NCBI GenBank assembly: GCA_015680685.1
Contig: MNCI01001941.1
Coordinates: forward strand, 737,318 to 801,317
Direction: 5' to 3'
Length of the DNA: 64,000 nucleotides
DNA from: Gnetum montanum
Taxonomy: Eukaryota; Plantae; Gnetophyta
Position numbers and translations under genes: made by a program. Each line of letters starts with the position of its first letter. The first letter of the stretch is position 1. Shown here one piece after another: positions 3,676 through 52,235 of this stretch. Under the pieces are notes generated by a model. That model was not told the DNA's origin and did no database searches. It worked only from the letters and a program-made list of their open reading frames with translations.

Positions 3676-3810
3676 GGGGTTTATCCCTAGGTAAACTTGT
3701 CATTTTCATTGTCAAAGCCCAACACCCATACTCAGGGCGTAGCATGATTGCACAGAGAGAGAGCGAACTGGTGTAGCATAGCAATTGACAGGGAATTAGC
3801 AAGCGAGATA

Positions 3811-7298: not shown

Positions 7299-7358
<60 letters not shown>

Positions 7359-8651: not shown

Positions 8652-8846
8652 CGTAGTGGTAGAGAGTTTTATTCTTGTCTTTGGATTCTCAAAAAAAATA
8701 AATTTGTAAACCTTATTGATTGATATTTTGAATGAAGGATGGAATATAAAAGGATTTATTTCATTTTGGTTAGTGTTTTGTATTTGTTTTTAGTCTATTC
8801 TTTGTCTTTTTTATTAATTAATTAAGCTCATTGAGAGCATCTCATT

Positions 8847-8966
8847 CTAGTTTTAGGCCATTTCGGGCTATCACTAGTTTTAGGCCATTTCGACCTGTTG
8901 GTAGTTTTAGGCCATTTTGGGTCGTCAAATGATGGTAAAGAAAAATTTTACTAGTTTTAGGCCTTA
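8847..8966. repeat. 27-bp-period array of motif CTAGTTTTAGGCC
   Basis: Copies at 8847, 8874, 8901 and 8951. Confidence 0.85.
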
Positions 8967-9149
8967 GCGGGTCTTTTTGTGATGTAAACAGTGGGTGTAA
9001 TGTGAACAATTTAAAAAATAAGGCAAATGTTAGCGTAAACAAAAAAATATGAAGCAAATAGTGTGAAGGATGAATGTATGGTTGATGTAAGTGGTGATCA
9101 TGTTGGAAGTAGTGTAGTAGTTATGCTAACGTAAGTAACAATCATTCTC

Positions 9150-12100
9150 GTAGCTGCTTCATAACCCATCATGGGCTCGATGATGCATAAGGCTGAGGGG
9201 CTTTGTTGCGATATTCTTCTATATCGCTATCTACCACTTGAAAAGGCAACTCGGTCCACATAGTTTGATTTTCTGAGTCGACATTTTGGGCTAGCACATT
9301 AGCCAAATAAGTAGCCTCAGTGGGGATAGGTGCTTCATTTTCAGAAGGTTATTACTTCTAAACCATGCTCCATCTCAACATTGTTTATTGCTTGGGTGGC
9401 CACTTTGTCACCATAGGTTACCACCTCCCTGCCCACGTAAGGTAGGTGGATCTCTTGATGTATGGATGAAGAGACAGCTTTGAGTTGGGCTAACCATGAC
9501 CTCCCTAAGATCAGGTTAAACCCAGGCATCTCTTCAACCATGATGAATGTCGTGCTTGTGGGGAACTGGTCCCCTGACACAGTTGTTGTGGACAACCCCC
9601 TTTACCACTACCTATGACATGAGGTTGTTGTGGGTTTGATTTAATCAACCAAGCCTATTTTTTCCACTATGGGGAATGAGATGACATTTTTAGTAGCCCC
9701 TTCATCAACGTGTACTCTTTGGATCTTGTGCTCATCAACCCAAATTGTGATGAACAGGGGTACTATTGTCACCCGACCCTTTTCAGGGTCATCCTTGATG
9801 GACTCATCATGGAATGTCAACTAAGTTAGCCATGGTTCTTCAAGCATAGAAGGAAGCATAACCGCATGGATTGCTTTCTTCTCCACCTACATGTTTTCAT
9901 CAATCGGTATCAACATTAACATGTGAACCAAGGCCTCGCATTGTGCAATGGAGGTCATTACCAAGTCATACAAGCTTAAGGTTGTATTCTTTTATTTTAG
10001 AGCCTGTTTGACTTGAGTAAGGGAATTTAGAAGGTCTTGTCCATTTTCTTGTTGTTTGCTACCCTTCTCTTCCTCTATTTATCCTAGGAGATGAATCTCT
10101 CATGGAGGAGAAGTTTCAAGTTTGGGGCTAGACCTTCTTGGGTTGGATGGTGATGATTGTGTGTGCATAGTGCTGTCAATTGTTGATGATGAAGGGGACA
10201 TAGGCATGGAGGAAAAGGGGCTAGGATTGGAGGGACCTAATGCTATACGTTCCTTGGCCATCTTGTCCATTATACACTCTTCCCCTTTTTTTGAACAAGG
10301 AGGCTATGGGGGTGTTTTAGATTTGCTCTGTGTGGCGAGGATAGTTGATGGTTTCGGCCCCCTAATGACAAATGGTGTTTGTGGTGTTACCATGGGTGAC
10401 GACGTAGTTTTAAACATGAAGGGTGAAAGGGCAAATGTTTGAGGGGGAACCTTGAGGATGAAGGGTTGTTGTGGCATCCTTTTTGCTATTGTTGATGCCT
10501 CTATGCTACATTGAGACACATGAATCACAAATGACTACTGTGGTGGTTTTGGATTACTGTCGATGTCAATTGTGTTGATAACATACCTTGCATTGTTGGT
10601 GTTCAGGGGGTCCTTGTAGACATGCATGGATTGATTTTCAGGGCATACAGGGTTACTTTCATCTAGAACCAACTTCCCCTGATCAATCATCCATTGGATG
10701 TCATCTTTTAATGCTAGACAGTAATCTATGTCGTGACCACAAAGTTGATGGTAGTCACAGAACCGTTCCAGCCGAAAGTTCTTAGGAACTGGCGGCTCAT
10801 TGGGCATAGCCAAGGAGGGGTTTCTAAGAAGTTTGCAATACCATTGATGCCATTTGATCACCTCCTCCAACATCTTCTTATGTTGAATATACCCAGCCCC
10901 CAAAAATTACTTCAAAATTTCTGAAGGCTTGACACATAGAGGGGTGTATTTGGAGAGGTCTTTATACTCAAAGTTGGGCTTAGGTTGGGTTGATGCCTCT
11001 GGTGCTAACGTTGAGGGTTGAGCAGCATTATTTAAGCTAGGCATGGGGTTAGTTGATGTTGTGGCTTCTTTTTTGTTGTTGTTGTTGTCGGGTTTGGCCT
11101 TGTTTGCCACGACGACCACCTTGGCTATCGTAGCCTTGCCCTTCTCTTTGTCCTTTTTGACATATGCATTTTTGTACGCAACATAGGTCGAGTCTTTACT
11201 AGCTTCGGCTATGTCTTGGATGATCTTCATTTGGGTGAAAGCTGAGAGAGCATGGGGCTAGGTAGTATAGTTTTAACTTAATAAAGTCATTTACTACCCC
11301 CTTGAAGATAGCCAACAGATGGGCCTCCACGATAGGCTCACCGATCTCATTCAGGGTAGCGCTCCACTGTTGTATAAAATTTTGCACTAACTCCAATGGG
11401 TCTTTCTTGACACTTATCAACTAATCTAGTGTGACCTTTGGCTTTAAATTATACTTGAAGTGGGTCACAAACTAAGTCAGTAGCTCCTCTAGAGTTGAGA
11501 TGAAGATGCATGGGAGTGCACGGTACCAATCTAAAGCTTTGCCTATTAGAGACATAGCAAAGACATGAATAATAGTTTGTAGCCACTACTGCAACAACAA
11601 AGATTCGGATCTAAACATGACTAGATGTGCATTGGGATCACTCTCCCTATTGTATTTTGTGAGTTGGGGGAGTGGCATCCCAGGGGGTAACATGAGCATG
11701 GGAACAAATGGGCTGATGGAGTCGTCATGGTAGAAATCCATGACCTGCACTGTGTTGGATCCAATAAATTTGAGATGTTTAATCTCTTCAGTGAGGGTCT
11801 AGATAAGTTGGAATGCTTGGTCCAAACCTGGGGATGATGTAGATGGTTGTGGGGTTGTAGGGGCAACCATTGTTGATGACATTGTAAGGGTAGTAGCCTG
11901 GCTCATAGGGGGTACCGTTGGGGCTGCTCCTACGAAGGGTGTTGCCTATGCAGTCCACCACCCAGTGGGTGGTGCTATTGAAGCGGTGGCGTCTAGGGGT
12001 GTTGTAGGGTTAGTCACTTGCGTGACTGATGGGGTGGACCACAGTCACATGCTTGGTTGTACCGTTTGTGAGACATGGTATGCTTGGTGGTAAACATAGT

Positions 12101-12930
12101 GTGACATTTGGGAGGATTGTGAAACAAGAAGAGAAGTGGTCGAGGCACACCATGCAGTTGGGGGCAGGGCTGCCATAATGGTAGGGTAGGCATGAACAAT
12201 GGAATGGGAGTAGGAACTCCTTGTAGCTGTGAGGTAGGCACAATGTGCACATACGGCAATGTAGCTGTGACCAGCATTTGGTACGATGACAAGATAGAGT
12301 GAGGAGGGAGAGTGCCTGGGAATGAAACTAAAGGGATAGTATGTTGGTACGCTAAGGGTACAGGATGGCTACCGATGGCTAATGAAAGTGTAGAGTTGCA
12401 GCAGAGTCATGGTAATCATAAAAGAGGTAGATGTAAAACGAGGGTTTGACTGGAAGACCACAGTGGGAGGGATAGTCGTAGGGTAAGTCTAGCCACCATC
12501 CTTGGATTGGGAGTCCAGGTCTTCTTGTCCATCCTAGAATACTTCATCATAATGGGATGCCATGTCCTGCTATTCCCTAGACCTAATCATTTGTATGAGT
12601 TGGTTCAGGACCCATTGATATGATTCGGTTAATGAGATAATGATATCAAGGGTGGGGATAAATTTCCTCTTGTTCCAATGAAGGAACTTGAAGTTATGTT
12701 TGTCTTTGAGTTCTTAGTGATCTAAGGGTAGATTTTCCTAGATCTTTACACAAAGGAAGTCATAATGCTCTGTGTCTTGCACTAATAATTTAGGTAATAG
12801 ATGTCAGATCCTAAGAGACTGGCATGGTGCCAGCACTGGGCTTGGTGGTCACTCGATACCTATGATGCTTTGAGTCAAGAAAGGAACCTCAAGGTTGGAT
12901 GTGGGAACTACGGTTGTTGGCGGAATCATT
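9150..12930 (-). pseudogene. Degenerate gag-protease of element A
   Basis: Gag core (AMSLIGKALDWYRAL, ESVQNFIQ-like ELVQNFIQQW), Tat-type knuckle FCDYHQLCGHDIDYCLALK, protease VHVDEGATKNVI...FNLILGRSWL..VSSSIHQ. Start position uncertain. Confidence 0.88.
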
Positions 12931-12996
12931 TTGCATGATTAAAGGGAAGTTGCAAATGAGAAAAATAGAAATCAATAGATGATTGGAGGCTTTTCA

Positions 12997-13012
12997 TCCT
13001 GCCGGGTTCCAA
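12997..13012 (-). promoter_or_regulatory. Putative degenerate primer-binding site of element A (tRNA-Trp-like)
   Basis: Minus strand TGGAACCCGGCAGGA ~10 nt inside the LTR end. Resembles the complement of the plant tRNA-Trp 3' end with a 2-nt deletion; tRNA assignment from memory and tentative. Confidence 0.4.
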
Positions 13013-13021
13013 AGGAATGGT

Positions 13022-14996
13022 TGTCGTGACCAGTCTACACCACACGATGCGTAAACAACTACGAGGGTATCATGTTTACGCTAGTGGGTGACAGGGTACA
13101 GAAAGCATGTAGGACTACCCAAAGGACATAGAAAGGGCACCGAAAAGGCCCTCCTTCTAGAGCCAAAAACTATTATGACTGAAAATGTTAGTGGCTGGAA
13201 CACCAAGAGGTTTTTGGGTGAACAGTTTAACCCTGGATTTGTGTGAGGACCATGTTAGAGAGAAACGGAAGTGGGGTGCCCTAAACGGTCTGGTTGATTA
13301 GATAGGGACTTAATCATTGTGTCTTAACCTTTCGTAAATGCTTGTTTCATAAGTGAGGCACGTGAAGTAAATTGATAATCAATAAGTGTAAAGTGGTAAA
13401 AATAGTGTGAAACAACGTTGATAGTAAGCAAATAGAAAAACAGACTTGGGTGAGAAAGTGCACCATCCCAAGGTCGTGGGTCTAATCCTTTGCTTTGTTG
13501 AAAGGTGTACAATAGAACACGCAACATGGAAGAGGCACAACTTACACAAAGTAGCATGGTCATAAATCTCTAAATTGTAGAGCCAACCAGCAAACTCAAA
13601 GCCAACTAGAGTGCTAAAAATTGTAGACTATGCTCTCCGAAAGCCAACTTAAAAGCCAATCACCACCCTAGGCTGACCCTTCAAGCATTGTTTGCTGGGG
13701 GTATTTATAGGCCTAGGAGTAGGAGAAAAATGTGTTCTGGATGCCATGTGTCTTGGGCCCCACAAGGTGCAAACATGGCTATACTATGTAGGTGTGTGAT
13801 GCTAGAGGTGAGCTTTGTTATGCTATGACCATACTACTAAAACTTCATGTGCCAAAATCTAGTGTGCTAACAATGCAAGAAAAATGGAGCCTATGCTCCA
13901 AGACTACGTCTTCCTTAATCTTGCAAGTAGGGTCAAGCGTAGGAACAATTTTTGGGGATTGACCAAGGGTATGCAAAATGAAGAAAACTTGCTGATTTTG
14001 TCTGGCAAAGAGATATCAGGATGAGAATAATCATTGCCAAAAAGTTATAGAGCTAACCGAAGACGTCTTGATGCCTCCATGCTAGTGTTGCACTACCCAT
14101 GTTGTTCAGCACATTGGCGTAGCATAAGTAACTGCTCGCTATGCTGTGCTATGGTACGTAGCATAGCATAGTGTAGCCACCGGTCTTGACAAAAACCTTA
14201 CGTAGGAGCTGAGAGCATTTGTGTGAGGATTGGTCAGGCAAAAAACTGAAACTTTTGTCCTCCATGCCAAAAAGCCTTCAAACTTACTAAATTCATCTTT
14301 GAAACATTTCTACCATTTTTGCATCATTGCTACGTTGTGCTACACTATGTAGCATAGCACAACGTAGTAGCCAATGTATCATGCTTCCTTATTCAATCTG
14401 CCATTTTCTACCAAGAAACCTTGCTTGAGGCCTGAGGACTAAGTGGGATAATCAGTTTTGGAGGCTAAAGCATTGCCAAATGCAATCTTCTTGTTGGAGT
14501 CACTTGGCAAAGGGGGGCCTTTTTGTGCTTTGTCCCTATTACACTTTACTACGCTACATAGTGCAACATAGCATAACACCTTGTGTTGGTGGAGCAAGTT
14601 TGCTTGACGGTTGCAACATGGGCAAATGCTTTGGAAGACCAACTTGTCATCAACTTACATCTTGGATGCTTGATTGATCTCTTCAAGGCTTGCTATGTAG
14701 CGCAGCGTAGTATATTTCTATGCTAGAAAACTTGCTGAACTATTTTTCTCATCCCGAACACTTTCAAAAAGTCCTAGCATGGTCCATGGGTAGACTGCCA
14801 GCTAGGTCAATTGTCTGGTTGGGTAGGCTGGAGAGTCTAGCAGACCTGTCAACCTTGGAGATAGAAAACTTGCTAGACTATATAGTCTATCCTTGGTGCC
14901 TACACCATTCTGTTGGCCCATCAACTTGTAGAAATCCTTGCCAAAATTCCAAGACTCTATTGAAGCATGAGGGTCCTAAAATTTTATGGTGTTTCA
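13022..14996 (-). repeat. 5' LTR of element A (~1.97 kb)
   Basis: Plus-strand termini TGTCGTGACC...aaaattttatggtgtttCA match element B termini TGTTGTGACC...aaaattttgttgtgtttCA. Minus-strand TATA (tatttatag at ~13702). Confidence 0.8.
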
Positions 14997-15045
14997 ACTA
15001 TCTATCATCCCATTCACTAGATATCTCTTATAAGACTTAGAATGG
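14997..15045 (-). pseudogene. Fragment of a third copy (G) of the Tat accessory gene, exon 3 continuation
   Basis: Translates SKSYKRYLVNGMIDS; compare B NLIYKRCKDDGTMHS. Joins in frame to 25524 after removing element C plus a 5-nt overlap. Confidence 0.7.
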
Positions 15046-15958
15046 TGATAAGCAATGGAGTAGTCCAACACTCAACCATGCAAGATATGAGTGTTCAAAT
15101 TCAACTAGGTTGAATTCTATGGATAAGGCAATGTAATTATGCTAGTAATTTGTTTGAGTTCATGATCATTGTCTTCCCATGTGAGTTAGTAAAATCAATG
15201 CATGTGGCTTAACTCACTGTGGGGTGTATGATAACTGATGTTACTTTGGCCATTTTACTTATAGTAAACATAAGGTAGATGAAAGTGATTTCTAAATCTA
15301 AGTAAACAACAAATGAATCTAGTCTAGCCTAGGTTATGGACATCTATTCCTAACTCTCTGCACATGTCTTGAACTTATGTAATCACTAGTAGGATTACCA
15401 AGTATCTTGTTACTGGGCAAACCAAGCAATAATATTACTGGGTTATCAAATAATCACACTTTATGCTTGGAATCAGTTGTATCCATTTTACTTAATAATA
15501 GTAGAAATAAATTGCATGGAAAAGTAAATAGTAACTAAGAAAATAGTAATCAGTAGATTAAGTAAAAACATTAAACATTATTCTAGGTAAATAGTAAAGA
15601 AACCAAGTGGATGCTACAATGGTGAAAAGTAATCTCAATATTTATTGCCATTCACACTTATGTCCATGTATAATATGCTCACATAAAGACTTTATACAAT
15701 CACTTCACACCACACTATGGACATACATAGCTAAGTGATAAGTACTAAAATCAAGAAAATAAACTGACAGAGTTTTGCTAAGGTGAAATGAAAATTGTTG
15801 TTTGGACTATGCATCTAAGTGTCATATTTATAGGCTTGCACATGTTTGCAATATTGAATATCCTACATTGTAGCTTATGCCTCAATATCAAGGATCTAAT
15901 ATTGTGGCTTTGGTATTAGATGTATGATATCATAGCCATGTAAAAACTTGACTTATCA
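15046..15958 (-). repeat. 3' LTR of element C
   Basis: Aligns along its length with 24609-25523; 7-bp terminal inverted repeat TGATAAG/CTTATCA. Confidence 0.93.
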
Positions 15959-16229
15959 TATGCCCATGACTGATTAAAAACTTGTCCTTGATTTGAATCA
16001 AAATGTAGATAGAGTTCCTTAAAAAATTAGGAGGTAGATATAGATGACACTAACTACTATGTACATGACTCTTAGTTGCCATAGTGGTGTTTATAAAATA
16101 ACACAAGATATGACATGACACTTTAACAAAAACCAAAAACTTGGTGAAGCTTCATGTAGCCTTATGTAGTTCCAGGTGAAATTGGCTCCTCCATTGATTA
16201 CTTTCCCTTTTTGTGAGGCTTTTGAAATT

Positions 16230-19200
16230 TTTACTAGTTTAAGAGCACCTGAAGTTTCTCCTCTTCTATTCTTGGGTCATGTACTATCCATGCTTGTTGT
16301 CCATTATGCAATGGAGTAGGTACATCCCATGGGCATGGTAGCTGTAGAAACATTTGATTTGACTTAATGTACCAGGTTGTGAACTACCTTCTTTCTTCTT
16401 TAAATGCTCTATCCTTTTTACATAGTTCATGATAATCTACTAATCATATGGCCAAGTTTGCTGCTCCATCCTTTTTTCCTTGGTAGCTAGCCTTCATTGC
16501 TTCCAGTTCAAAGTTTGCTACTTGGAGCTTTTGCAAAGCATCTTTATGATCCACAAACTATTTTTCATACAAATAATATGTGGCTACTACTTGCTATTCT
16601 AATTCATTCCTAGGCCTACTTGCTATCAATATGGTCAAGTTGGCATAATGGAGGCTAGTTAACCCTATATATTCTTTTAGGTCTTTAATCTATAGGCCTT
16701 TAGTTTTCACTTCCTCTTGATGTACAAGGGCATACCTATCCAAAATGGGTTTTTAATGAAAATTCTATGTTGACATGGTGCTAATTTTGGCTTTGGTTAT
16801 TTAGATCTCTTTCTTGTTAATTTTCTTGTACATGCCCACATGATCTCGGAAGTGTTATTTGAGCCTCTCATGTTTCTTTTCCTTATTTTTCCATGTGCTT
16901 ATCTCAATGGCTAACTTTCTATGGATGACTTGTACCTCCTTCATTGAGAGGATTGAATTTTTTCTTACATGGTGGCTCATGTCTTAGTTGATCCTTACCC
17001 GTTGTTCCCTTAACTGGTGGATGCTCTCTTTTAAAATGTTTTTCTACTTTTTGATAGTAATCAACCTCATGTTATCAACAACAATTTGTTTATTTTCCTC
17101 TTATACTATGGAAGTGCCTTGACATGTGCATATGTTTGTGCTTCAACTATGGAGGCATTCCATACCACTTTATCCTCCTCTGTCGCCATTCATTTATTTT
17201 GTTCAATCAAATGGTTCATCTACTCTATCCTAAACTATTCTATTTGATCAAGCACAATAAATTTTGTAGGATCTCTTTGTTCAACTCTTAGGGTTGCAGG
17301 CTCTTCTTGTAATTTTAGAATTTCATTTTCTACATGCTTTACCCTTTTCACTACCATAACTAGTTTTCCCTTAGTAGTAATGAGCCCAAACTATATTGTA
17401 GTGACATCACTAGGGATGTTGAAGAGTGTTTTCATGAATTTCCTAGTCTACAGTAGTCTATTAAGCACATCCCTACGGTTAGTAAGAGTCATCGAGGTTT
17501 TGGCTAACATTTGAACATCTCTAGCTCTAGTTAAATTAGCTGATTGCATAACTAATACATTACAAAATTTTTTAATGTGATTGGTGGTCACCTCTACTAC
17601 TCCTACACATCCTAGTGTTACATTACCACTAATGTGGCTCATTCTCTAGTCTTAAGCACCACTTAGAATAATGCAATGTTTTCTAGAGATCTGTTGTGAT
17701 CATTGATCCCTTTCTCATGACCGTAGTAAAATATATCCAGTTGCTAGATCTACTAAAATTTTCAGTTGGATGGCATTATCAATAACTCTATAAAGGATGG
17801 CCTCCTCCCTTATTCCCTAGCTAATGGTTTTTATAATTTGTTGTAGATGACTTATTGATGATCTCGTGGTGATGGTGGTGAAACTTGCTATTATTGTTGT
17901 TCTTGTTGCTCCTAATGTTGCTACTAATTTTTCTCTTGTTATTATTCTTGTTCTTCAGCCTAATCTTTTTTAGGTGGTGTTGGTTTGAGAAATTTAGCAT
18001 ATGAAGCATTTTGGGCTTTCCTGGGAATGTCATTAGTGTATCCTAGGATTCCAAATTGCCTATACAACTTTTTGATAAGGTAGGAAAATGGAACTATTGG
18101 CTTTCATACCTTCATTTCTTAAAACCGCCTCTAAATTTCCATAAAATAGAGTTGTGCAAGGTTAGAATTGTATTTTTCCATTAGGATCACACTTTCTATA
18201 GCCACATAAGTGGATAGTTAGTTAATTCCTTTTGTTAGAAATAGGTGATAAGTGCCAATATTGAATTAGATTCTTTCTTCTAGGGTTAGCTCGTTGTAGC
18301 CCTTATCTTCTTTTCCATAAGTCCATTTTGGACATCATTTTTTGATTTCAAGATCTAATTAGGTGGATAGATGTGCTAACCTTGCCCCTTCATTGGGTAT
18401 ATTTAGAGCTTCTACAATTTCCTTGATCAAGAATGAAACTAAGATTCCTCAAATGTTAACTGTGGTACCCTCTTCCTTGTTGTGCTAGAACTAGTAGGTT
18501 TTCCCAAGGTATCATTCAACACTATTAAATAGGATAGGCCATAGTGGTGATGCCTTAAGTTATTTCTTTACTACTTCTAGCATAAATTCCATGAATGGGC
18601 CAAAGTCCATCTCCATAATGACATGTGGTTAAGATGGATCTTTCTTGAATAGCTTGGAGGCAATCATGTGACAATGTGACATGTTTTCCTTGCACTAGTA
18701 GTTCTTCTGTCTCTCCTTGGACTGATTGTCCCATAGTAGGAGTCTCTTGATGAATGCTAAATGATTGAGCTTTCTACACCTTTTTTCCTAGTTCTTATCC
18801 TTCTATTCGGCCTCTGGCTTGGCCTCTTAGTCTCTTATTTACAGCTTCTAAGAGTCCTGCTTGTGATCCTCTCTTTGGGATCACCTATAATCATTAAGGA
18901 ATTGGAAATCATTATAAGGTGTTTTCTAATTTTTATAACTCCCTTCCTTTCTCATAATTTTAGTGGGATCAAGTTCTTAGTTGTTAGGGTTGCAGAGTTA
19001 GAAACGTTTTCCAAAAAGTTATCCAATAGGTATTATTTTCTTTGTGACTTCTCATAGTTATCTATTTGGTTCTTATTTATGGATCATTATGATTGGTTAT
19101 GGTTCTTTAAGAGTATTATTTGAGTGTTATAGCTTCCTCATGATTACTTCTTATTAACAATTTTCAAATTTTACCTCATACTTACCCTTAAAGTACCTTT

Positions 19201-19257
19201 CGAGTGTTAGAATTTTGTTGAAATGTTAGCTAAGACTTTCTCACTAGGACCTCCCAT
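16230..19257 (-). pseudogene. Degenerate Athila env-like / accessory ORF of element C
   Basis: LWPILFNSVE(R)YLGKTY(Q)F(Q)HN..VNI(R)GILVSFLIKEIVEALNIPNEG, homologous to the D ORF, followed by Q/E-rich and coiled-coil-like segments. Ends approximate. Confidence 0.7.
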
Positions 19258-21129
19258 GAATAATATGAGCACTTCATGATTAAATAGGTTAAGAAAGCAT
19301 GAAAATCAAAGCAATAATTGTCAAGTTATGACATAGTAAAGCTAGGAGGTTAGAGCTCAAATTAGAGAAGAAAATTCAAAAAATCTCCCTTGTGTTCAAA
19401 TGAAAATGATGGAAAATTTAGCTAAGTCACCATGTATATATAGGTTTTATATGACCTGATATCATGAATTTGATATCAAAGCCAAAATGTTTTCACTTTT
19501 CATAAGTGTGATGGGAAAAATTGATTGTTTTGGATTTCTAAAAGGTTAAAAGTTGCTTAGAGGGTTTGGATGACAAAGATATGCATATTTTTATCAAAAT
19601 TTTATCATTGAAAGTTTATAAAGAAGGAATCTCAGGGTACGGAATTTCATAAGATGGATTAAGAAGGGTAATGAATTCATGTAGTGACAATGGATAGTTT
19701 AAATGATGTGGAAAGTATTTATTCACATATTTTGATGCTCAAAGGTTCAAGATGATGTGGAATCGCTTGGTAGGTATGAGATACAATAGTTATAGAAGTG
19801 AATCCTCCCCAAAGTAGGCTCTAGCCTATAATGCCCTTGTATAACCATGCCTAAAATGTCCTTAGGCATTGAAATAATTTAATGTAACACATACCTATTT
19901 AGCAAAACACACATGTTAGTACCACCAAATTAAGAAAATAACTCTATGTTACATAAAACCACAAGTTATAACTATTCAAATAGTAAGATGAAATGGAATT
20001 AAAAGGGATTGCAAAAATCGAGATGTGAGGTATCTTATCATAGGAATAATGAATTTGTATATTTTATTAGTGGTTATAGTAATCACTAGCCTTTCTATCC
20101 AGGATTCAAACCAAGTCCAAACCACATTCTAGTGACATTGCATCATTTCATCTCTTGGAAGTACAATCGTAAGACTATCAATGTTGAAAGAAGTATTGTC
20201 ACTTGGTGTATTGTCCAAGGAAGGAGTTTATTTATGGAACTATGTTTATTTTTAAAATTTTTGAAAAGCCACCTACGTTTAGGCATGGTTAACATGTCTT
20301 TCCAGCGGGATCCCTACAAATTTATTTTGTGCTCTTTTATTTTTTATTTTTGTCAACCTTTCAAGGAAGTAGTTATTTTACTCTTACTCCCATTTTTCAT
20401 TAGATCTACAAAGATATAAGAAAATCTTAGCAAGATGATAGAACTCACAATAGTAATCCAAAAGAATCCATAAATCCCCTTGATGTTTGATCCTTTACAT
20501 TCCCACTTGGTTCTTCACTTCTCTATCTAGGCATAATGATCACAAGTTTGTTGTTAGTTGTATGATGGAAAAAAGTATCATTATGGTCATGGTAAGAACC
20601 TTTTATTAATGGAATAGATGAATGGATGATGTGTGATTATTGTTCATATAATTAGTCCCTTATGACTTGATAACATAGAGAAATCTTCACCTTGGACTAC
20701 ATCTTACCTTTATTTGTAATGTGTCTTATTAGTAATCAAAATTATTTACAAAGGGCTTGAAAAAAAAGTATGAAAGAAATAAAAAAGATAGTAAGAATTG
20801 TGAAAAAGGTGTAAAGAATGAAAAATGTTAAAAAATGAAAAATGCTAAAGCTGCAACAGATATCAAAGAATGTCAAAAATTTAAGAAATGAAAAGTATCA
20901 AAGAATAAGAAAACATTAAAGAATGTAAAAAAGTAAAGAAATTATAAATTGGAAAGAATTGTAAAACAAAAAATAGAAAAGAACTTATTAATTTTGAACT
21001 TAAGATAGGACATCTCCCCCATGACTGAACTCATGGGTGAGTGTTTGGAAAATGCTCCCTATATCTCTTGTATCATACACTCTAAGTGGTTTACTTACCA
21101 TCTTTATTGATTTAACTTTTCCATTATTA

Positions 21130-24120
21130 TCCTAGGTCATTCTAAGGATAATGGAATCTTGATTGTTTAAGTTCTTATTTTCTTTTTCTATTGATGTATG
21201 ATTATGGTTTAATAGTTTCATTTTTGGGTCCTTAGTTGGAGTCATCTTCTTAAAATGGGAGTTAATAAGTGGATTAGATTGTTCCATGCATTTTCCAAAT
21301 AATTTTTGGTTCTTAGTTAGTGACCATGAGATGTTTTTTGATTTTTGGCTCTTGGTCTTGCTTGTGCACACACTTTTTTTTCATTATTATTGTGGATGGG
21401 TATGGTAATTGTGTTGGCATTCTGAATGATCAGTTCACAACTACATCCTTTTCTATTAGTAGTAATGTATGGGATTCATTGTGTGTGCATGGCTCCATGC
21501 TTATCCTCCTTAGAGATCTTAATAGATAGATCCCTCATACTTAGCTTAGCATCAATTATGTTAATCCATGCTCTCCCTATGATAATTGAAAATTCTTTGT
21601 TAGCATCTTTCACATAGATTATCAAAAATTTTGCTAGATAAGACCACCCATTGATAGTGCTCACTATCTCATCTATCTATCCCAAAGGAATGGCAACAGA
21701 TTGATCTACAAGCTCCAACCTGATGTGGCACTCTTTCAATGGTGGGTAGCTTCCATGGTTGATATGTTTTATAAGAGATCAAATTTATCCCAGAATCTGA
21801 GTCTAACACAGCATTGCATAGTAGATTTCCAATTACTTGTAGATAAATCAAAAGAACTCCTACATCAATTCTCTTCTTAGGGAGTGGTCCTACCTTTATC
21901 TAGTATGTAATGATTTCAATGAGCATGATAGTTTTCTTATTTGGATTGAATGATTAAAGAAGATTTTTGGTAGTAAGAGAATTTATGGTAGGGGAATTTG
22001 GTCTTGATGAAGCTCTAATTCTACTAACCTTTTCAAGTCTTGTCCTAAGGAAAGGATGTTTCTTTATTTGGCCATTAGTGTTGATCATAGGATACTCTAT
22101 TTTAATGTTCACTACCCTTGTAGCTTTTCTCTGCTATGGTTGTGATGGAAATTCACCATGCATAGTAGGTGGTGGCACTAGTGGTAAAGGATTGAAAGGG
22201 AAATTTGATGGGCTAGCTACTAGCAAATGTCTGTGAGGACTTTGATACATCCTTAAAGTAGTAGGTCAATAACATTCTACTATATAGTAAGGAGAATAAG
22301 TTTGAATTGATGTGTTTCCTATAGATATTAGATGCTAAACATAATATTCATAAGCATCTTCTTGAATATATGAATATTGTGGCCTTGGCGGTGGTATTGC
22401 CCATGTCTATGATTGTTGCCACTACTACTAATATTAATCTTGTGGTTGGGGGTAGACTCTGCTTGGGTAGTATGCTGGCTAGTAGGGTTGCTTGATATTA
22501 CCTTGAGGATAAGGTAGTCTTTTGGGCATATGCTTCTTGACAAAGCTCCAATTGAGTGCATATACCCCAGATTCTTTCAAGTGGACCATAACATGACAAC
22601 ATCCCTTAGGATGTTCATACTAGCACACATTGTATCCTTCCTTTTCCTCTAAACTAGAGTTAGTGGTATCCTTCAATGCTTATAACTTTTGAGTTCATAA
22701 TCCCTTTTCTTCTTTCTTTCCTTACCCCTATTAAGTGCTTGTTTAGTCATTTCTTCCATAATATTTAGGGCTACAACAAATGTTTCATCCATTGAATCCT
22801 ATACATTCTCTACCTTAGTTGCTATATCATTGATTTATTTTTGAATGTGTAGAGTCATTTTCTAGATAACATCTTTCATGGTTTCATCCTCTTTCTTGTC
22901 ACATATTCACACATCTCTCTTTCAAATTGATGGATCTTTATTATACTCCTCACCTGATTCCATCTTTCTTAGCTCATCTTCCTCTTTTTCCACTTGGTTA
23001 ATTGGCTTTTGAATGTAATGAGTGATCAATTTTGATAGCCTACCTTAGGCGTAAACACCAAGAGTATTTCTAGTTTTTCTTCATAGCCCATCTATAATGT
23101 GCCTAAGCTATTCCCTTGGTGAAAATCCATGGCCTGGGCATCTATACAATAGTGAATAGTATTTTTCCATTACTACATCAAGGGTCTCATGAGTCCCTTG
23201 CTTCAATCCATGCATTTATTTTCTTAAATTAGATACTTGTGAATAATTTTGATATTTATCATTGAAGAGTACAAACATGGTACTCTAGAATCTGATTGAT
23301 TTAGGTTCTAATGACTTATACCAGCTCTTTGCCTCTTTCACAAGTGTTCTAGGAAATAGCTTCAATTTTTTCCAATCACTTTTGATATTTTGAAGGATGT
23401 AGAAATTGTGGAAATCTTGAAAGTGATGTTGTGAATCAACATTATAGCCACCTTCAAATCTCAACATGTTCATGTCTAGTCATTTGATTCAGCTATCTCT
23501 CACATGCTTGGTTGGTATATGGATAGCTTTGTGAATGTTTATCATGCTTTAGGTTTCCATGAAGGGTTCATCATCATGGTTAGATTCATATGATCTGTTG
23601 TAGCAGTGACCCCTTTTGTGCTCATACCTTTCTTGATCATCTCTTCAATCCCTTCATCTTCTATGTTCATATTCATTATCTTCTATTTGAAAGTATCTTG
23701 AATATTGGTCATAATGGTCATGTTTCCTCCTTTCTTCCCTACCATAGTCCTAGTACTTGTGATATGTTTTGTCAAAGTTCATTGATGATCATGATGAGGT
23801 ATATGAGGTAGTAGAAGAATGATGCTATCTTATTCTCCTTTCATGACTCTTATATGCTTCTTTGTAGGATTTGATAGCAATCCTTAGCCTTGAGTCCCAC
23901 TTATACCTTGAGTCAATGGCCTCCCCCTTAGGTGTCTCTGCTAGAGTGGAATTAAGCTAGGCTTTGATAGGTTCCTCACATATGATGATAGGTATTTTTG
24001 AAGGCTCCTCATGGCTTTGGTGAGGTTTCTCTAAAATAAATCCATCAACATCAATTTCTTCTAAGATAACAAGAGTGTTTAATTGCTTCCCTTTTCTGTG
24101 TACATGTCCATTGCATCATC
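21130..24120 (-). pseudogene. Degenerate gag-protease of element C
   Basis: KLKLFPRTLVKEAKSWYKSLEPKSI (retrotransposon gag), NAVLDSDSGINLIS and FSIIIGRAWI (aspartic protease). Confidence 0.85.
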
Positions 24121-24587
24121 TCTCCTTATCTGCTTCTTTGTGGATTCATAGGGTCTTGTCATGTGCTATGTCACATGATATCCTTCCTAGATTTGGTTCA
24201 AATGCAATCCCCATAAGGTAATTTAAATCATGTTAACTACTGCATGTTTTGGAGCTAGGACTATGTTACCTTGCATGTTCCTCCATCTCATTTAATTTTC
24301 TTAATGAAAGATGAAAGTGAAGTCTATATGATAAGAATCAGTGTGATCATAAGTGATTCTTATTTGCATTGGCATCCCCCATTCTTCTTCATTAATGATT
24401 CTATCATTACTTCTTCTTATCTCCTTAGAAGGTGGTGATGTATCTTTGTTTAAGGTCATGTTTGTGAATTAAGATGTTGATTAAGAGAATGTAACTTATT
24501 TGGGTTTATTTAAAAACATTAAGATTTTGACTTTGGGTTTCTAATACAACAAACTTTGGAAAATCAAATATTAAGCATACATTGACT

Positions 24588-24607
24588 TGTCCCCAGCAAC
24601 AACACCA
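24588..24607 (-). promoter_or_regulatory. PBS of element C (tRNA-Asp type, Athila-like)
   Basis: Minus strand TGGTGTTGTTGCTGGGGAC is the C>T-decayed form of TGGCGCCGTTGCCGGGGA, immediately inside the 5' LTR. Confidence 0.85.
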
Positions 24608-24608
24608 A

Positions 24609-25523
24609 TGATAAGTGGTGAAGTAGTCCAACGTCTAACCATATGAGATACAAGTGTTCACATGTAGCTTGATCGAATTCTATGGATAACATAGTGTAAT
24701 TATGCTAGTAATTGATTTGAGTTCATGATCACTATCTTTCCACATGATCTAGTAAAATCAATGTGTATGGTTTAACTCATAGTTAGGTGTATGAAAACTA
24801 ATGTTTCTTTAGCCATTTTACTCATGGTAAACATAAGGTAAATGAAAGTGATTTCTAAATCTAAGTAAACAACAAATGAATCTAGTCTAGCCTAGGTGAT
24901 GGACATCCATTCCTAACTCTCTAGACATGTCTTGGACTTATGTAACCATTACTAGGATTACCAAGTATCTCACTACTGGGTGAACCAAGAAATTATACTA
25001 CTAGGTTATCAAATAATCACACTTTACACTCGGAATCAGTCATATCCATTCTACTTAATAATAGTAAAAGTAACGTTCATGGAAAAGTAAATAGTAACTA
25101 AGAAAAAATAGTAATCAATAGAATAAGTAAAAATAGTAAACATTATTCTAGGGACATAGTAAAGAAACTAATTAAATGTTTCAATGGTGAAAAGTAATCT
25201 CGATATTTATTGTCATTCACACTTGTGTCCAAGTATAAGATGCTCAAATAAAGACTTTGTACAATTACTTCACATCACACTATGGGCATACACTGCTAAG
25301 TGATAAGTGATAAAATTAAGAAAATAAACTAATAGAGTTTTGCTAAGATGGAATGAAAATTGTTATTTGGACTATGTGCCTAAGTGTCATATTTATAGGC
25401 CAGTATGTATCTACAATATCAGATATTTTACATCATAGCTTGTGTCCCGATATTGAGGATCCAATATTGTGGGTCTAATATCAAATGTTCGATATCATAG
25501 TTGTGTAAAAAATGGACTTATCA
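24609..25523 (-). repeat. 5' LTR of element C
   Basis: Pairs with 15046-15958 and is adjacent to the PBS. Confidence 0.93.
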
Positions 25524-26008
25524 AGTCATGTCTAATGCTTTCCTCAAATACATCCACCAATTGCTCCTGTACTGCAAGCCTCACACTTGGACTTTTAGTA
25601 AACACATCTAAAGCTATGTGGGCTAGGAGTAGGAGGTTATCACATTTGATTAAGCTTCACTCATCCATCCTAAACTTATAGATAACTAAAACAAGAATAA
25701 AAAATTATAACCTAAGCAGTTAATGAAAGAAAAAAAATCATGAACCAAAGATAACAATCTTACTTACCATGTATGTGGTAGATGATGCCTAGAGGGGTTT
25801 GGAACCATGTATGGACATAGTGGCTAATAATCAAAGTGTTGTTCATGTTATATTGGTTGAACTTAGGCATCTTCCAAAATTTAAATAATTTATGAGTGTT
25901 CACAGTAGTCATGTCATCATGCCTCTCTCCCTCTGTGTGAACATTAGGTTCATTAATCAAGAACTTGACTATCAAGCTAGAGGAACTAGTTAGAAGGGTT
26001 TCCACTAT
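25524..26008 (-). pseudogene. Third copy (G) of the Tat accessory gene: end of exon 2, intron 2, start of exon 3
   Basis: IVETLLTSSSSLIVKF...FWKMPKFNQYNMNNTLIISHYVHTWFQTPLGIIYHIHG, then GT donor(s) at ~25762-25767, an ~85-nt intron, then FRMDE(R)SLIKCDNLLLLAHIALDVFTKSPSVR. Both peptides align to A and B. Confidence 0.85.
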
Positions 26009-28947
26009 TGTTGATGCCATCTTTAAGGTCAAGTTTTTCATCTTTTGGTATCTTAAAACATTAAGAAAAATGGAGAACAAGGTTGTTGTGTGGTGGTATG
26101 ATTATTGTGATTGTAGGACAAGAAATTGGATTGAAACAAGAAGGTTTGAGAAAGATTAAGAACATGGATAGAAAATGAAGAATTCAAAGTGTAAAGGAAA
26201 GTTAAAGAAATATGTCTCTAAGAAATAGTAGATGTCTTCATAGAATTGAGGGTTACATAGGTAAAGGCATCTTCAAGAACTAGTAGATGTCTTTCATCAG
26301 ACATAGATGTCTTCATAGAATGCAAGCTAGTTTCAAAAAGATGGCTTTCACTAGACAAAGACATCTTCCTAGAATAAAGACTAGTTTAAGAAGGATGTCA
26401 TTTCCTAGGCAAAGATATCTTTCCAGAATGAAGGAAAATATAGAAAGATGTCTTAGACATGAAAAAGATGTCTTCCATGACCATTAGCTAGTTAGTGCAG
26501 GAGTTCAAAGATGAATTTGGAAACATGGTAACTATAAGAAGACATCATACTCATTGGAAAATGTGCAAGCTTTAGTATTATCATTGTGTAATCATTTAAC
26601 AATTATTGTAATCATTATTGCTACTCATTGTTTTATCTTTTGTCTATTGTAAAGTATATTGTATCTTAAGTACAAGGACTAGCAAACCAATTTGCATTCA
26701 TCCCTTGTAGTTATTATTCTCTCTTGTTGCCCTTCAGGGTTGATGTGCTTCTTGTAGGAAGGCATCTTGATTGAGCTTGTTAGGATCTTGCTAAATTGAG
26801 TGGTTGTGTAGCACCACAACACTCTCGAGCATAGCTCAAGATTGTAAAGGTTGTGGAAGCTTAGAAAACACATTCTAATCTTATTAAAACCTTACAGGAT
26901 TGAGTGGTTGGTGTAGTGTCACAACACTCTGAAGTGGAGCTTAGATCTTATACAAGGTATGGTACCCTTCAAACCATATTTAAGAGAAAAAAAGTTTAGA
27001 GTTGTTCTTGTGATCTACCTTCCAAGTGTGGACTACCCAAGTTGGGGAACCATGTTCAATTTGGTGTGTATGCTTCATTCAAAGAATTTAAATTAGGAAA
27101 ACTTATTTATCCCTCCTCCTTCTAAGTTTAATGATCCACAAGTGGTATTGAATCCTGGTACTCTTGTGCTCTACATCCATTTGCAAGAGTGAACATGGAA
27201 GGGGTAATCAACATCAAAAACATCTAGATAAAGAGCCTAATGTACATCATCAATTGGTGTGTTCAATTCATTTATCACATCTGTTATAAAGGTAAGGATC
27301 TCATTTCCTTCCTTACATTCAAAAATATAGAAGACTATGTTTGTGAAGTTGACAATTCTTGTGATTATCAAAATGACATTTCCTTTGAAGAAGGGTATGA
27401 GATATTTTGCCATAAAATTCTCTCTTTTTGAAATTTTTGCATTGAGATAAAATATTTTTTACATGTCAAGGAAGTAAAAATTAAAGTTCTTAATGATGAA
27501 TGCTCGTATCTCAAAAACAAAAAAAATAAACTTAGACCTTCAAGTTGAGATTCAAGCACTACCAAATATGATTGAGCAAATGAACAAGAGTTCTATGAAG
27601 AAGTTCAAAGATCAAAAATAGTGTTTATCAAGGTTTGGAAAATCTTCTAAACCTAAAAATTGAAATGCTTCTTTTGTAGTAAGTATGATCATATTCAAGC
27701 TTTTTGATATCTTAGAATGCATCACTACTCTTGGTCTTTGCAAGACTAGCCTAGAAAGAAAACCATGTAGGTTTGGGAAGGAAAAGAAAGAAAGATTGAA
27801 AAGAATTTGATGGCTCAAATTACTTTCTCTAAGGACAATACTAGCACATGGTATATTGATAGTGGGTGTTCGAGGCACATGATAGGTGACAAATCCTACT
27901 TCAACCACTTCATAGAACAAAATTGTGACACATTCACATTTGGAGTTGACATGGAAGCACCTATAATAGTTATTGGTATCATAGGAGGTAAAGGTAAGAG
28001 ATTACCAACTATGAACAAAGTGTTTTTCCTTGATGGATTAAAACATAGTCTTCTTAGTGTAATTTAGATATATGATTCAAATTTTAATGTTAGGTTTTCA
28101 AAAGAAAGTTGTAGAATAAAAGATTTATCTATAGGGAATATTATGATTGAAGGATCTAGAAAACGAAATGTGTATAAGACTATTTTTTGAAATTCTTCTA
28201 ACCTTGAATCCAAGTGTTTAGTAAGTTGTGTAGATGGTACATGTTTTTGGCATAGGAATCTAGGCCACATAAATAAGAAAGTTCTTTAGACCTTGGTATC
28301 TAAGGAAATGGTCAGTGGTCTCCCTAAGCTCAAAGACTTCAACCTAAATACATGTGAGGCCTATCAGAAAGGAAAATAAATGAGGGTGAGAGTTGGTAAG
28401 AAAATTTGTATTTCTACTACTCTTCCTTTAAATATACTTCATATGGATGTGGTTGGTCCAATTAAAACTCTTAGCTTTGGAAACAAAAGATACTTTTTAA
28501 CCATTATTGATGATTATTATTACTTTACTTGGGTTTCCTTTTTATATCACAAAGATGAGGTGTCTGATCATTTTTTGAGAATTAGTAATCAGATCCAAAA
28601 ATAAAAATGATATGTTATTAAAGTCATTAGAAGAAATAATGGAGGTGAGTTCAAAAATGAAAATTTTAAAAACTTTTGTCAAATGAATGGTATTCTACAT
28701 CAATTCTCTACTGCATGAACTCAACAAAATGGGGTAGTTGACCAAAAAATAGAATCTTGAATGAGATGGGAAGAATCATATTAAATGATCAAATTCTTCC
28801 TCATACTTTTAAGCTGAAGCCATCAACACTACTTGTTACAAGTCCAATAGAGTTATGGTAAGAAGATTCACTTCTAAAATTCCTTATGAAATACAAACTC
28901 ATAGGAAACCTTTGGTAGCTTATTTTCATGTTTTTTGTTCAAAATGT
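26009..28947 (+). mobile_element. SIRE-like Ty1/copia element F (5' LTR 26009-27140, PBS ~27143-27155, gag-PR-INT), cut by element B
   Basis: LTR begins TGTTGATG exactly where G homology stops and ends ttatttatccctcctccttctaag...ccaCA, followed by TGGTATT. Copia domain order follows. Confidence 0.85.
27195..28947 (+). pseudogene. Degenerate copia gag remnant, protease and integrase of element F
   Basis: CFFCSKYDHIQAF knuckle, WYIDSGCSRHMIG, WHRNLGHIN, LHMDVVGPIK..YFLTIIDDYYYFTWV, YFHVFCSKC. Confidence 0.93.
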
Positions 28948-30415
28948 TGTTGTGACCAAAAATCTCATTTGTTGGAAGAAAACCAAGGATCCTTGGTGTA
29001 AGGAATTCTTCAAATCAAAATCCCTAGGACCTCCATGAGAGAAATGGGATTCAAGGCACCCTGTCTAGTCTGGTAGATCAACCAAGGACTTATGAGATGC
29101 AAAATGTAGGAGTATAAATAGATCCAAAAAGTGCATAGAAAAAAATTTAATTTTAACACAAACCTCAAAACTTAAAAATTTATTGAGAAAGAATAAAGAA
29201 TAAGTTAGAGAAATGTGTACAAATGGTGCTTGGATGACCAGATAGGGGGTTCACTTATGCAAGAGTTCAAATCCCATTGAAGTTGATGTGATTTTCTCCA
29301 TGATCTAGGTGTTAAGCCACTCTTGATGCTATCGAACCTTTCTTCACTAATACAACCTTAGATCTATAAGTTGGGTCACTTCTAGGACATGAGAAAGGTG
29401 GAAAATTTGGATGCCAAATTGCTCCATGCTAGGGTTTGAAAATCCCATAGGTGTGACATTGACATAAAAAATACACAAATCTCAAGGCCATAATGCTTCC
29501 ATGTTAAGGTTCAAGAGAATGCATGTATGGGAACTTTCAAGAGCTCTTGAGTGCTTGAAAATGCCCTAAGTGTAGAATTGTAAAATTAGCTAAACTTTTT
29601 TGAAAAATTATTGGAACCAAATTTTCTTTTATGCCCAAAAGTTGTTGAACCTTGTCAAAAATTTCTAAACAAATTCTAAAACCTCTAAATGATGTTTGAG
29701 GTTATCTTTTATAGGATGTTTGGGCCATGAATGGGGCTGTAAATTGGTTGTGAAATGGCTACAAATTTACTGTAATTTTAGGTGAGATGGATATCCAAAT
29801 TTAGGGGTTACCATACATAGTAAGTTCTTTTCCCCATGGTCATTCCATTTACTATAAATATTAACTAGGGCACACCTATCACACTAGAGATGAATCTTCC
29901 ATGCTATGTTCTTCACCATGCTTATTGAAGTGGTTGGTCAATGCTGAAGTGCATCAAGTGATGAATTTTTGCTTTTGTGGCTTCCATACTAGGGGGATTG
30001 AGTTTTCCATATTGGGAATGAAGACTCCACAGAGGGGGGAAACTTTCACATTTAGGGGGGAAACTTTCTAGGATAAGGAAAAAATTCCATGCTGGGTAAA
30101 AAACTTCTAGGCTAGGGAAAAAGTTTCTAGGCTATGCATGTGGTCTCCATGGTGAAGGGGAAAAGTTTCCAAAACCCCCACCCTTCCATGCTATGGGTAG
30201 TTGAGATCTAGCCCCCTACATGTGTTTCTAGCATAGAAAAATGTATACCCCCCATATAACCCATCAAATTATTCTTTTTCTCATTTNAAAGTATGTGAAA
30301 TTTCCCTTTATGGGTTACAATTTTCACATTTATATGAAGTTTTGCTTTGGGTTTCATGGGGTGAAAGTTACATGATGAAGATTGGTTATAACATGAAAAA
30401 TTTTGTTGTGTTTCA
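28948..30415 (-). repeat. 3' LTR of element B (~1.47 kb; N at 30287), PPT at ~30418-30429
   Basis: TGTTGTGACC...gtgtttCA followed by atggtccctctttg (minus strand CAAAGAGGGACC). Confidence 0.8.
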
Positions 30416-30651
30416 ATGGTCCCTCTTTGTTGATGCCAAGAGGCACTAATAAAGAATAGAAAACACTATAGCATATTATACTAGTAAAATGCATATAGGC
30501 CACATGAAAATTAGGCTCTCCAAGTTACCAAGGTTGGTTTTTTAAGGCCATGGTGGACCATGGTCTTAGTTTAAGGCCCTGTCAAGTCATGTTGCTAGTT
30601 TAAGGTCGTAGCAAACTATTGAAAGTAGGATTTCTTGATGATGATTATTGG

Positions 30652-33600
30652 CTACATGTAGTATGGCTTTAGATAGGAATGATTGACCAGATTGGCCAAC
30701 CAATTTCCATCCATGTTAACTATTTTGAATGCTCTATTCCCATAGGCTCTAGTGATAAGGAAGGGCCCTTCCTAGTTTGCTAAGAATTTTTTGGCATGCT
30801 AACAGATGACCTTCAGGAGTAGGTCCCCCTCCTTGATCTTGTGCATGGTCAAGTCAGGTTGATGTTGTCACTTCTATCTCTCTTGATAATGCTTGATGTG
30901 ATCAAGCACTTGCATACACCACTCCTCCACTGAATCTAGGGCTATTGTCTTCAACTCCTTGTTCTACTCATTGTTGATGAAGTTGATCAAGGCTACTCGA
31001 AGCAATGGCACCTACAATTTAAGAGGTAAAATAACTTCAAAACCATAAACAAGGCTATAAGTGGTCATGCTAGTTGTCATGTGATAAGTTATTCTATATG
31101 CCCATAGTGCATGGACAAGCCACTCATGCCACTTCTATTTGCTATTGTTGAGCATCTTCTTGAACAAGTTGATGGTGGCATTGTTGTTTACTTTTGCTTG
31201 CCCATTAGCTTAAGGGTAGTAAGGTGACAAGAAAGAATGCTTAATGTCTAGGTTGTGACAAAAATACTTGGTTTCTTGGCTACTAAATTGAGGTCCATTA
31301 TCCATAACTATGGTCATGGGTATGCTAAAATGGGAACAATGTCATCTAGGATAAATTTGCAAACTTTTTCAGATGTGGTCTTCCTTAGGGGAATAGCCTC
31401 AATCCACTTGGTAAAGTATTAAGTTGTGGTGATGATGAAGCTATGTCCTATGGAAGACTTATGCATTATGGGTCCAATGATATCAAACCCTCATTGTTGA
31501 AATGGCCATATTATCTAGGTCTTATGTAACTCAGTTGGTGATACATGTATTATATTTCTATATCATTGGCATGTGTCACATTGCTTAATATTTTGCAGGT
31601 AGTCATGCTCCATATGGGGCCAATAGTAGCCTAACTATCTAATCTTATTAGCCATGGCTCTAGGTCCTATATGTCTTCCACAAAAACCCTCATGAACCTC
31701 CTCTAGGACTATTCTAGATTCAATTTTACCTAAGTACTTTTGGAGCATTCCATCATAGGAGCATTAACATAATGTGTTATCACCTACAATGACATATTGC
31801 TTTGATTGCTTATGTATGGCATCCTTTTGAGTAGTAGTCATGCCATGTGAGGATTCACCATGTGTAAGGTAAAATTTGATATCATCATACCACTCCTTGA
31901 TAGGAGTAGTATGAATGATGGCCACAAAGGTATCCTCAATGTCCTATGTGATAGCAATAGCATAGTCCATAGTTAAGATGGGCAACTTGCTAAACACATT
32001 TGGCATCACACTAAGGGCTAGTATTGTAATTTCATTAGCTATGGAATTTTCATTTCTACGTATGTATTGGACATCAACATCTATGAATTGTTGTAATAAC
32101 TACTTCCATAGGTCATAGTAAGCTTGTAAGTGCGTAGCTTTGAATGCATATACTTCAATTACTTGGTTAATCATGAGTTGTGAATTGCCTTTGATGACTG
32201 GGCATCTAATTCCTATGTCATGAGCTACCATGTTCCTCTAATCAAACCCTCATGTTTTGCTATGTTGTTCATACATGGGAACTCAAAAAATAGGCAAAGG
32301 GTTGGATCTCACTAGATGGGAATGTCATAATGGCAGCAACATTAGCCTCATGGGTAGTTGAAGCTCCATCAAAGTTCATGACTGCCTCATAACCCTTGAG
32401 CACTTGGCTAACTGAGTTAATGTATTCATTAAGAAACTTAGGATCTATGATTTCTTGGTCATCAACAGGTGAAACTATTGGGATATACAACTACTTTCGT
32501 AGATGTTGGTCATTATGGCTCTGAGTATGTTGTCCTTGTAAATTACGTTGACTTGGCTTCTAAAGAGGTAGTGTCTCCATTTCTTCAAAGAGAATACTAG
32601 TGCTAAACAATGCTTCTCTGCTTCATTGTATTGAGTCTCGTGGGCAACTAATGCATGGCTAAGGTAGTATACAAGCATTTTTGCATCATCATCACATTTT
32701 TGATAGACTAGAGTGGCAATGGATGTATCACAGATGATGAGATAAACATAAAATGGTTTACCCTCTTGTGGAGAATAGACTATCAGTAGTTGTGTGAACT
32801 CTTGCTTAAGGTTTTCAAAGGCCTCTTGGCATTGAGCTGTTCACTCATAGTGAATTCCATTCTTAAGCAAGTGTTGCATGGACTATAAATTATCCATAAA
32901 CCTAAAAATAAACTATAACCTACCTTGTAATCCCCAAAGCTCTTTATGGTTGGTACGTACTGCCAATTTAGATATGGCCTTAACCTAACCAGGATGTATG
33001 TGTATTCCTACTTCAAAGACTACAAAGCTAAGCATATTACTGGTCTTGACTCTAAAGACATACTTCTTAGGATTAAGCCTAAGATCATATTTGAGACATC
33101 ATTTAAGCACAAGATCTAGGTCATTAGCATGCTCATTGGCTATTTGAAACTTCATGGCTATGTTATCTACGTAATCATTAAGAAAACCTAACATGTAATC
33201 ACTGAAGATATAGGTCATGGCTCTTTGGAATGTTTCTCTAGCATTTTAAAGGTTAAAGGGCATTATAGTATAATAAAAAGAACCCCATGGGATCATAAAG
33301 GTCATGCTAAGTTGGTGCTTTGGGTTTATCCTAATTTGATTATATCCTAAGAATCCATCCATAAAGGACAGTAAGACATGTCCAACTATAATATCAATGA
33401 GTTGATCAATACTAGATAAAGGGAAGTCATCCTTGATAGTTTCTTTATTTAGGTCTCAAAAATTAATTCAAATATAGATACTCCTATTTTTCTTAGGGAC
33501 TACCACTATGTTGGCTACCCATCCTGCATAATCGATAACATTAATGAAACTTGCTTGGTAAAGATTTGAGATTTCATTGCAAACTACCAAGGCCAAATCA

Positions 33601-52200: not shown

Positions 52201-52235
52201 TACTTACCTATACCTACCTTACTCTTGTGAGGGCG

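Follow-up and report, generated by a model that had tools for sequence, protein, structure and literature searches.

The locus examined here raises the question of what a small, interrupted coding fragment represents when it lies wedged between three different retroelements, and whether its interruption carries a meaning of its own. The window analyzed is a stretch of 64,000 nucleotides from Gnetum montanum (assembly GCA_015680685.1, contig MNCI01001941.1, positions 737,318 to 801,317 of the forward strand). It is a 64-kb nest of decayed plant long terminal repeat (LTR) retrotransposons, with four N positions (399, 7359, 30287, and 60428), none of which falls within 14997-26035. The fragment, designated G, lies on the minus strand in two pieces (25524..26035 and 14997..15045) bordered by a Tat element (A), a gypsy element (C), and a copia element (F). 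We take G to be a degenerate piece of an orphan gene that likely derives from a third old Ogre-like family and that was likely cut in place by A, C, and F, a reading drawn from the sequence to which we assign a probability of about 70%. Judging from the setting of the gene in A and in a second Tat element, B, G would itself have belonged to an Ogre-like element.

The orphan gene is also present in A and B, and sequence comparison identifies G as its third copy, deeply diverged from the other two, in agreement with the original prediction. On the minus strand, the peptides of G occupy 25852-25817, 25635-25591, 25539-25525, and 15041-15009, as stated there, and tblastx joined G to B (39075-39335) and to A (5128-5223). 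Pairwise scores were compared with the best of 300 shuffles, and the alignments of G with A and B proved to lie far above this level. Across the block preceding a likely intron, referred to here as exon 2, G and B shared 34 of 85 residues (score 143, best shuffle 50), G and A shared 27 of 86 (score 110, best shuffle 40), and A and B shared 37 of 102, again far above the best shuffle. The protein identity of G with the A and B copies was 31-40%.

The pattern of nucleotide change within these alignments bears on how the gene was kept. Identities at codon positions 1/2/3 were 0.56/0.64/0.38 for G and B, 0.44/0.63/0.34 for G and A, 0.46/0.61/0.27 for the gene cores of A and B, and 0.70/0.76/0.47 for the reverse transcriptase (RT) of A and B. 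The third position was the least identical in every pair, with a range of 0.27-0.39 for the gene compared to 0.47 for the RT, and different codons were found behind 19 of the 34 residues common to G and B. Third positions are the least alike and many shared residues use different codons, a purifying pattern of change in which conservation acted on the protein as the lineages diverged. G is valuable as a third independent copy: the three-way conservation shows that several retrotransposon families kept the orphan gene at the protein level and that it was not a one-off capture. The earlier claim that at least three diverged families share the gene thus holds with respect to divergence; a complete third element was not found.

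The right piece of G (25524..26035) comprises the end of the exon 2 block (26035-25768), a likely intron with GT at 25767 and a phase-matching AG ending at 25686, and the start of the exon 3 block. It is broken by an in-frame stop in exon 3, and both of its ends are cut. The left piece, 49 bp in length (14997..15045), resumes the exon 3 block beyond C, as indicated by a register test and by nucleotide identity. In A, B, and G alike, one shared motif is followed by a GT donor. The intron phases disagree, however, with a donor phase of 2 in A and B and of 1 in G, and a clear acceptor is missing from B; since the phase is off by one base in G and the acceptor is unclear in B, the intron is considered likely and no more. 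The intron between the exon 2 and exon 3 blocks is read from the GT..AG interruption.

The setting of the gene is best seen in element A (240..14996, minus strand), whose LTR starts at 14996 and has a tentative far end near 13022. The minus-strand order is LTR, gag (~11900-10300), protease (~10000-9344), spacer, and RT-RH-aRH-INT (~3063-240, from Pfam matches). The protease-RT spacer is ~6.3 kb (3063-9344) and is filled by the orphan gene (4770..8490, plus strand), which runs antisense to gag-pol and is decayed, with many stops. B (28948..42100, minus strand) is a relative of A, with a 3' LTR at 30415-~28948 after a purine tract and with INT-aRH-RH-RT at ~30660-33920; its copy of the gene (38881-42098, plus strand) has the same orientation and lies upstream of the RT. 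A match to aRH (RVT_3) was found between the RT_RNaseH and integrase matches of both elements (E 7e-15 in A, 2e-5 in B), which is the domain order of Ogre and Retand (PMC6317226). In both elements, the RT frame comes after a pyrimidine tract with an AG. Most of the 120 relatives of the A RT were 41-50% identical to it and were plant Tat-type polyproteins, although these hits carry no lineage labels. Among them, 27 matched both the protease and the RT of A; the two matches lay 20-440 residues apart in these relatives compared to 6.6-6.7 kb in A, and none had a match inside the A spacer.

Taken from their sequences, A and B are likely Ogre-like, by aRH position in both and by the GAG-PROT/RT spacer in A. 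Two observations count against our reading. The protease-gene-RT order is complete in A alone, where it spans the scaffold N at 7359, although B is colinear and its gene is unbroken over that point; the gag and protease of B were not found within the window. Behind the tentative LTR end of A near 13022, no clear primer site of the Arg type could be made out. In favor of our reading, no second copy of the LTR was detected within A, with matches of just 18-45 nt. It was also noted that a run of ~58 C beside the N inside the A gene (7299-7359) likely marks a contig end, and that a 63-bp direct repeat, 98% identical, surrounds the single N at 399 in the A integrase (336-463) and is probably a scaffold-join overlap.

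Searches for relatives of the orphan gene returned no family. The queries were decayed and shallow, so that blanks from them are weak. No Pfam family was assigned to the gene among 252 stop-free frames of at least 55 residues, and 16 read-through pieces gave weak sub-threshold hits alone. PF10536 (PMD) and PF04195 (Transposase_28) matched none of 10 gene pieces or three exon-2 rows, a result that leaves room for a remote relation of these decayed copies. Homologues were absent among 244 candidates for the A gene core and 1017 candidates for the three-row exon-2 alignment, and a profile of the A/B core found no match among 1.84 billion representatives, nor did the gene match any PDB sequence. 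The predicted fold of the A/B gene core, with a mean predicted local distance difference test (pLDDT) value of 42, was not usable. The best ESM Atlas result (0.82) fell in unnamed bacterial clusters and was not taken as a lead.

We then consider the edges of G. LTR termini are present at two of its three cuts, and a probable one is present at the third. Element C (15046..25523, minus strand) is a non-autonomous, Athila-like gypsy element recognized by an LTR pair, a primer site, gag, and a protease-like motif. Its LTRs (25523-24609 and 15958-15046) have TGATAAG...CTTATCA ends and are 83.8% identical by self-comparison, with 146 differences over 913 sites (Kimura two-parameter distance 0.185). 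The gag matched Retrotrans_gag (E 6e-9), so that C combines a TG...CA-ended LTR pair with a gypsy-type gag. No RT, RH, or integrase was seen in C and no pol family matched in Pfam; the Athila ORF-1 Pfam match was likewise absent. The primer site adjoining the 5' LTR may be of the Asp type (Athila), which it resembles in pattern. An open frame in sense orientation precedes the 3' LTR (~18900-16240). Compared with the orphan-gene core, this open reading frame (ORF) gave a probability of 1%, and a relation was rejected. A second diverged copy of its 16240-18622 portion was observed at 57709-60144, 22-40% identical by block and without a Pfam family.

At the opposite end of the left piece, the LTR of A adjoins G at 14996/14997, where the similarity of G ends, which agrees with the claim that A inserted 49 bp from C. 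Beyond 14997 the scores collapse to -40 and -41 (null mean -33), and nucleotide identity falls to 6-7 of 45 from 19-23 of 45 before it. Read on the minus strand from 14996, the A terminus matches the start of the B 3' LTR better than any other place in the window apart from that start itself (4 mismatches in 22, next best 6); the B 3' LTR sits behind a purine tract at 30415. The likeness is confined to the terminus; over full length the two LTRs scored 39, within the shuffles (maximum 40), and similarity at that scale was rejected. An LTR terminus thus abuts G in mid-frame, as an insertion of A would produce.

The third cut involves F (26035..28947, plus strand), which has a 5' LTR from ~26035 (26009 in the first reading) to ~27140, a degenerate Met-type primer site at 27143 as read from the sequence, a protease (27771-28064; Pol_BBD, E 5e-12), and an integrase (rve, E 2e-8) that is cut by B at ~28948. 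Pol_BBD is followed by rve on the plus strand, the copia order of protease directly before integrase; RT is not visible. The contig evidence for this region came from three contig sets (runs with three different organism labels). One contig covers 25736-26072 without difference, so that the junction of G and F is not an assembly error, although the run of this contig may be the source sample. About 10 contigs per run deviate from the window at 25735. Summed contig depth, which is not a copy number, was 262-700 per bin over G and reached thousands to tens of thousands on the LTRs of C and F, and G looks like a moderate-copy repeat. No loose-end row was found at the G edges among the rows listed. 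One RNA run contributed 225 reads, 202 of them less than 90% alike, with no joint over G and no evidence on expression.

The attribution of the left piece to G, and hence the split by C, was weighed against a chance match. The 49 bp could be unrelated to G, with C having lost or never had a matching target-site duplication (TSD), for example through recombination of two C-family copies. Such a view gains from the 5-mers flanking C, which match poorly, as had been stated originally, agreeing at 2 of 5 positions; unrelated 5-mers do so 41% of the time, and at the LTR divergence of C, a TSD would show at least three differences with a frequency of 3% by the binomial or 6% by count (53 of 909 LTR-alignment windows). 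The piece is also short, at 15 residues with few identities, and its score is reached by 27 of the 127,906 six-frame windows of the stretch, three of which are A, B, and the piece itself, leaving 24 unrelated windows of 127,903. When overlaps from -6 to +15 (22 offsets) were scored against A and B, however, the piece was in register at the canonical 5-nt overlap alone (+28), with the remaining 21 offsets at or below -4 (p about 0.004 over 22 offsets, about 0.0006 over the 4-6 nt range). Plant LTR elements carry 5-bp TSDs in 93.4% of cases (PMC6317226). In that register it is identical to B at 19 and to A at 23 of 45 nt, compared to 24 of 45 between A and B, and the similarity stops at the A LTR terminus. 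A chance match is accordingly highly improbable, and because the 5-nt overlap alone of 22 offsets places the left piece in register, G was likely split by C, as judged from the sequence; removal of C with one 5-nt overlap restores the frame as originally described. A comparable choice arises at F, which the original prediction placed directly after 26008. A start at 26009 would have a perfect TG (TGTTG) with a 6/7 match to the reversed LTR end, whereas 26035 begins with TT, and the additional 27 bp of G-like similarity would then be due to chance. G nevertheless aligns ungapped for nine codons further (26009-26035; score +13, A-B +9, reached by 0.7-0.8% of null windows), with 14 and 10 of 27 nt identical to the two copies; past 26035 the counts drop to 8 and 5 in 27 nt (A-B 16). 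Two related copia LTRs in the window, both preceded by a purine tract, start with TG (49738 and 55023), and for their first 24 nt position 26035 ranks third of 127,952 (behind only the LTRs themselves, and tied with two places, one being the reverse strand of the same spot) compared to rank 7362 for 26009. A start at 26009 would further require that A and F share one and the same 5-mer as their TSD, with a chance of 0.0015. Placement at 26009 is possible but doubtful; F more probably starts at ~26035, its original TG having presumably mutated to TT, and the first reading would have misplaced the F edge and TSD by ~26 bp. It was noted that 14997-15001 and 26004-26008 are this same 5-mer, which is probably meaningless if F starts near 26035; with the F edge moved, the idea that G had inserted as one block flanked by a repeated 5-mer was given up.

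Two wider alternatives concern the origin of G and the clustering of its cuts. G could lie outside any LTR element, either because a DNA transposon carried this copy of the gene or because G is a host pseudogene from which the A and B cargo came. The window contains no LTR, pol, or primer site belonging to G, which counts against our reading, the introns suggest an origin at the DNA level, and PMD-type extra ORFs of Tat elements are related to MULE proteins (PMC4408406). This origin is unlikely, as G is no closer to A and B than these are to each other and no farther, G is multi-copy in contigs (within the limits of summed depth), and no cellular relative emerged from any protein search. It was also asked whether G is a true integration hotspot whose local sequence or chromatin attracts Tat, Athila, and copia elements. 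For three termini to fall within 529-555 bp has a probability of 0.5-3% at an assumed one insertion per 2-5 kb, and nesting is reported to be common, somewhat non-random, and in favor of inter-domain regions (PMC6911290). Yet such a probability is unremarkable because the remnant of G was picked for being small. The evidence is a single locus selected as a small remnant between insertions, such odds recur often in a repeat-rich genome, and the identical end 5-mers lose their meaning if F starts near 26035. A hotspot is quite improbable and is not supported by one locus; three insertions in ~0.55 kb are likely ordinary nesting. The observation that three retroelements hit G within ~530 bp therefore stands as three cuts, without a meaning beyond nesting.

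With G read as an orphan-gene fragment cut in place, its three LTR termini and the cut integrase frames order the events as had been proposed: G was in place ahead of A, C, and F, F arrived ahead of B, and A ahead of K. The F integrase frame ends at the B LTR end near 28948. K is seen as an LTR end (1..239, with CA at 238-239 followed by gatgg), at which the A integrase ends (239) whereas the B integrase continues. Nothing orders A, C, and F relative to one another. C would have made a 5-bp target duplication that was later altered by three substitutions, A and F would be true insertions with partner duplications beyond the window, and the cluster would reflect chance nesting in a saturated region. 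The nest itself carries little weight beyond the relative dating of events at one locus. It is a new case of a known phenomenon, and the interest rests on the gene and its position.

Several known systems resemble parts of this arrangement. Ogre (Tat clade, OTA superclade), as described in the excerpts of PMC6317226 and PMC4408406, shares the RT-RH-aRH-INT order of A and B, the GAG-PROT/RT spacer of A, and the carriage of an extra ORF. The Ogre spacer is a spliced intron with a mean of 274 bp (PMC6317226), whereas that of A is ~6.3 kb and holds an antisense, likely spliced gene. Extra ORFs catalogued in these excerpts sit 5' or 3' of the polyprotein region, the gene of A and B lacks a PMD or Transposase_28 match, and the Arg primer site of Ogre was not found in A. 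Retand, Grande, and RIRE2 likewise have antisense ORFs that are shared between families and lie near tandem repeats, such as those of B at 34458-36000; however, theirs are placed between pol and the 3' LTR and are mostly TRP28 in the portions of PMC7264820 and PMC11963269 considered, and the orphan gene is upstream of the RT and matches nothing in Pfam. In large plant genomes, nested LTR clusters similarly contain several lineages inside older elements, read from cut frames and LTR termini; set beside the excerpt of PMC6911290, nothing here differs in kind, although the substrate is an accessory gene and not a 3' untranslated region. The orphan gene likely rides backwards in at least three old retrotransposon families, at a position that is absent from the classes of extra ORF listed in these papers.

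For C, the comparison is with non-autonomous Athila. The LTR pair, Retrotrans_gag, the sense ORF before the 3' LTR, and the lack of aRH are shared, and the primer site may resemble the Asp type. C differs in having no visible RT, RH, or integrase, which precludes phylogenetic placement, and no Athila ORF-1 Pfam match.

How such a gene might persist can be outlined. In A it lies antisense in the GAG-PROT/RT spacer, the stretch that is spliced out as an intron in pea and Medicago Ogre. With the spacer spliced, the gene would cost pol expression nothing, and unspliced genomic RNA would carry the gene along. Its own introns would persist, as they face the opposite strand, and its promoter may lie between its 5' end and the RT. 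The product would most likely have an accessory role, in regulation or against silencing; this is a guess that draws on other extra ORFs of Tat elements, whose function is likewise unknown according to the excerpts of PMC7264820, PMC11963269, and PMC4408406. We put at even odds the broader proposal that an Ogre-like lineage made its protease-RT intron a cargo bay of 6 kb, in which an antisense gene that is itself spliced and belongs to no known family was maintained by selection on the protein in three or more families, old enough that just 30-40% identity is left, with G as the third witness.

Further features of the window were recorded alongside these elements. Tandem arrays lie between the RT and the gene of B at 34458-36000 and 37770-38868, with units of ~180 bp and ~130-190 bp, and a ~1.65-kb tandem duplication follows past the B gene at 42379-45521. 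A ~4-kb direct repeat, 85% identical with a period of ~5.3 kb, occupies 47155-56420 and looks tandem-duplicated rather than like one LTR pair; each copy holds a minus-strand copia-type LTR related to that of F, with a purine tract before it. At the far end of the window (60824-64000), the minus strand encodes a further Tat-like integrase (63985-62612); several open frames come after it, 100-155 codons long, for which Pfam gave no match.

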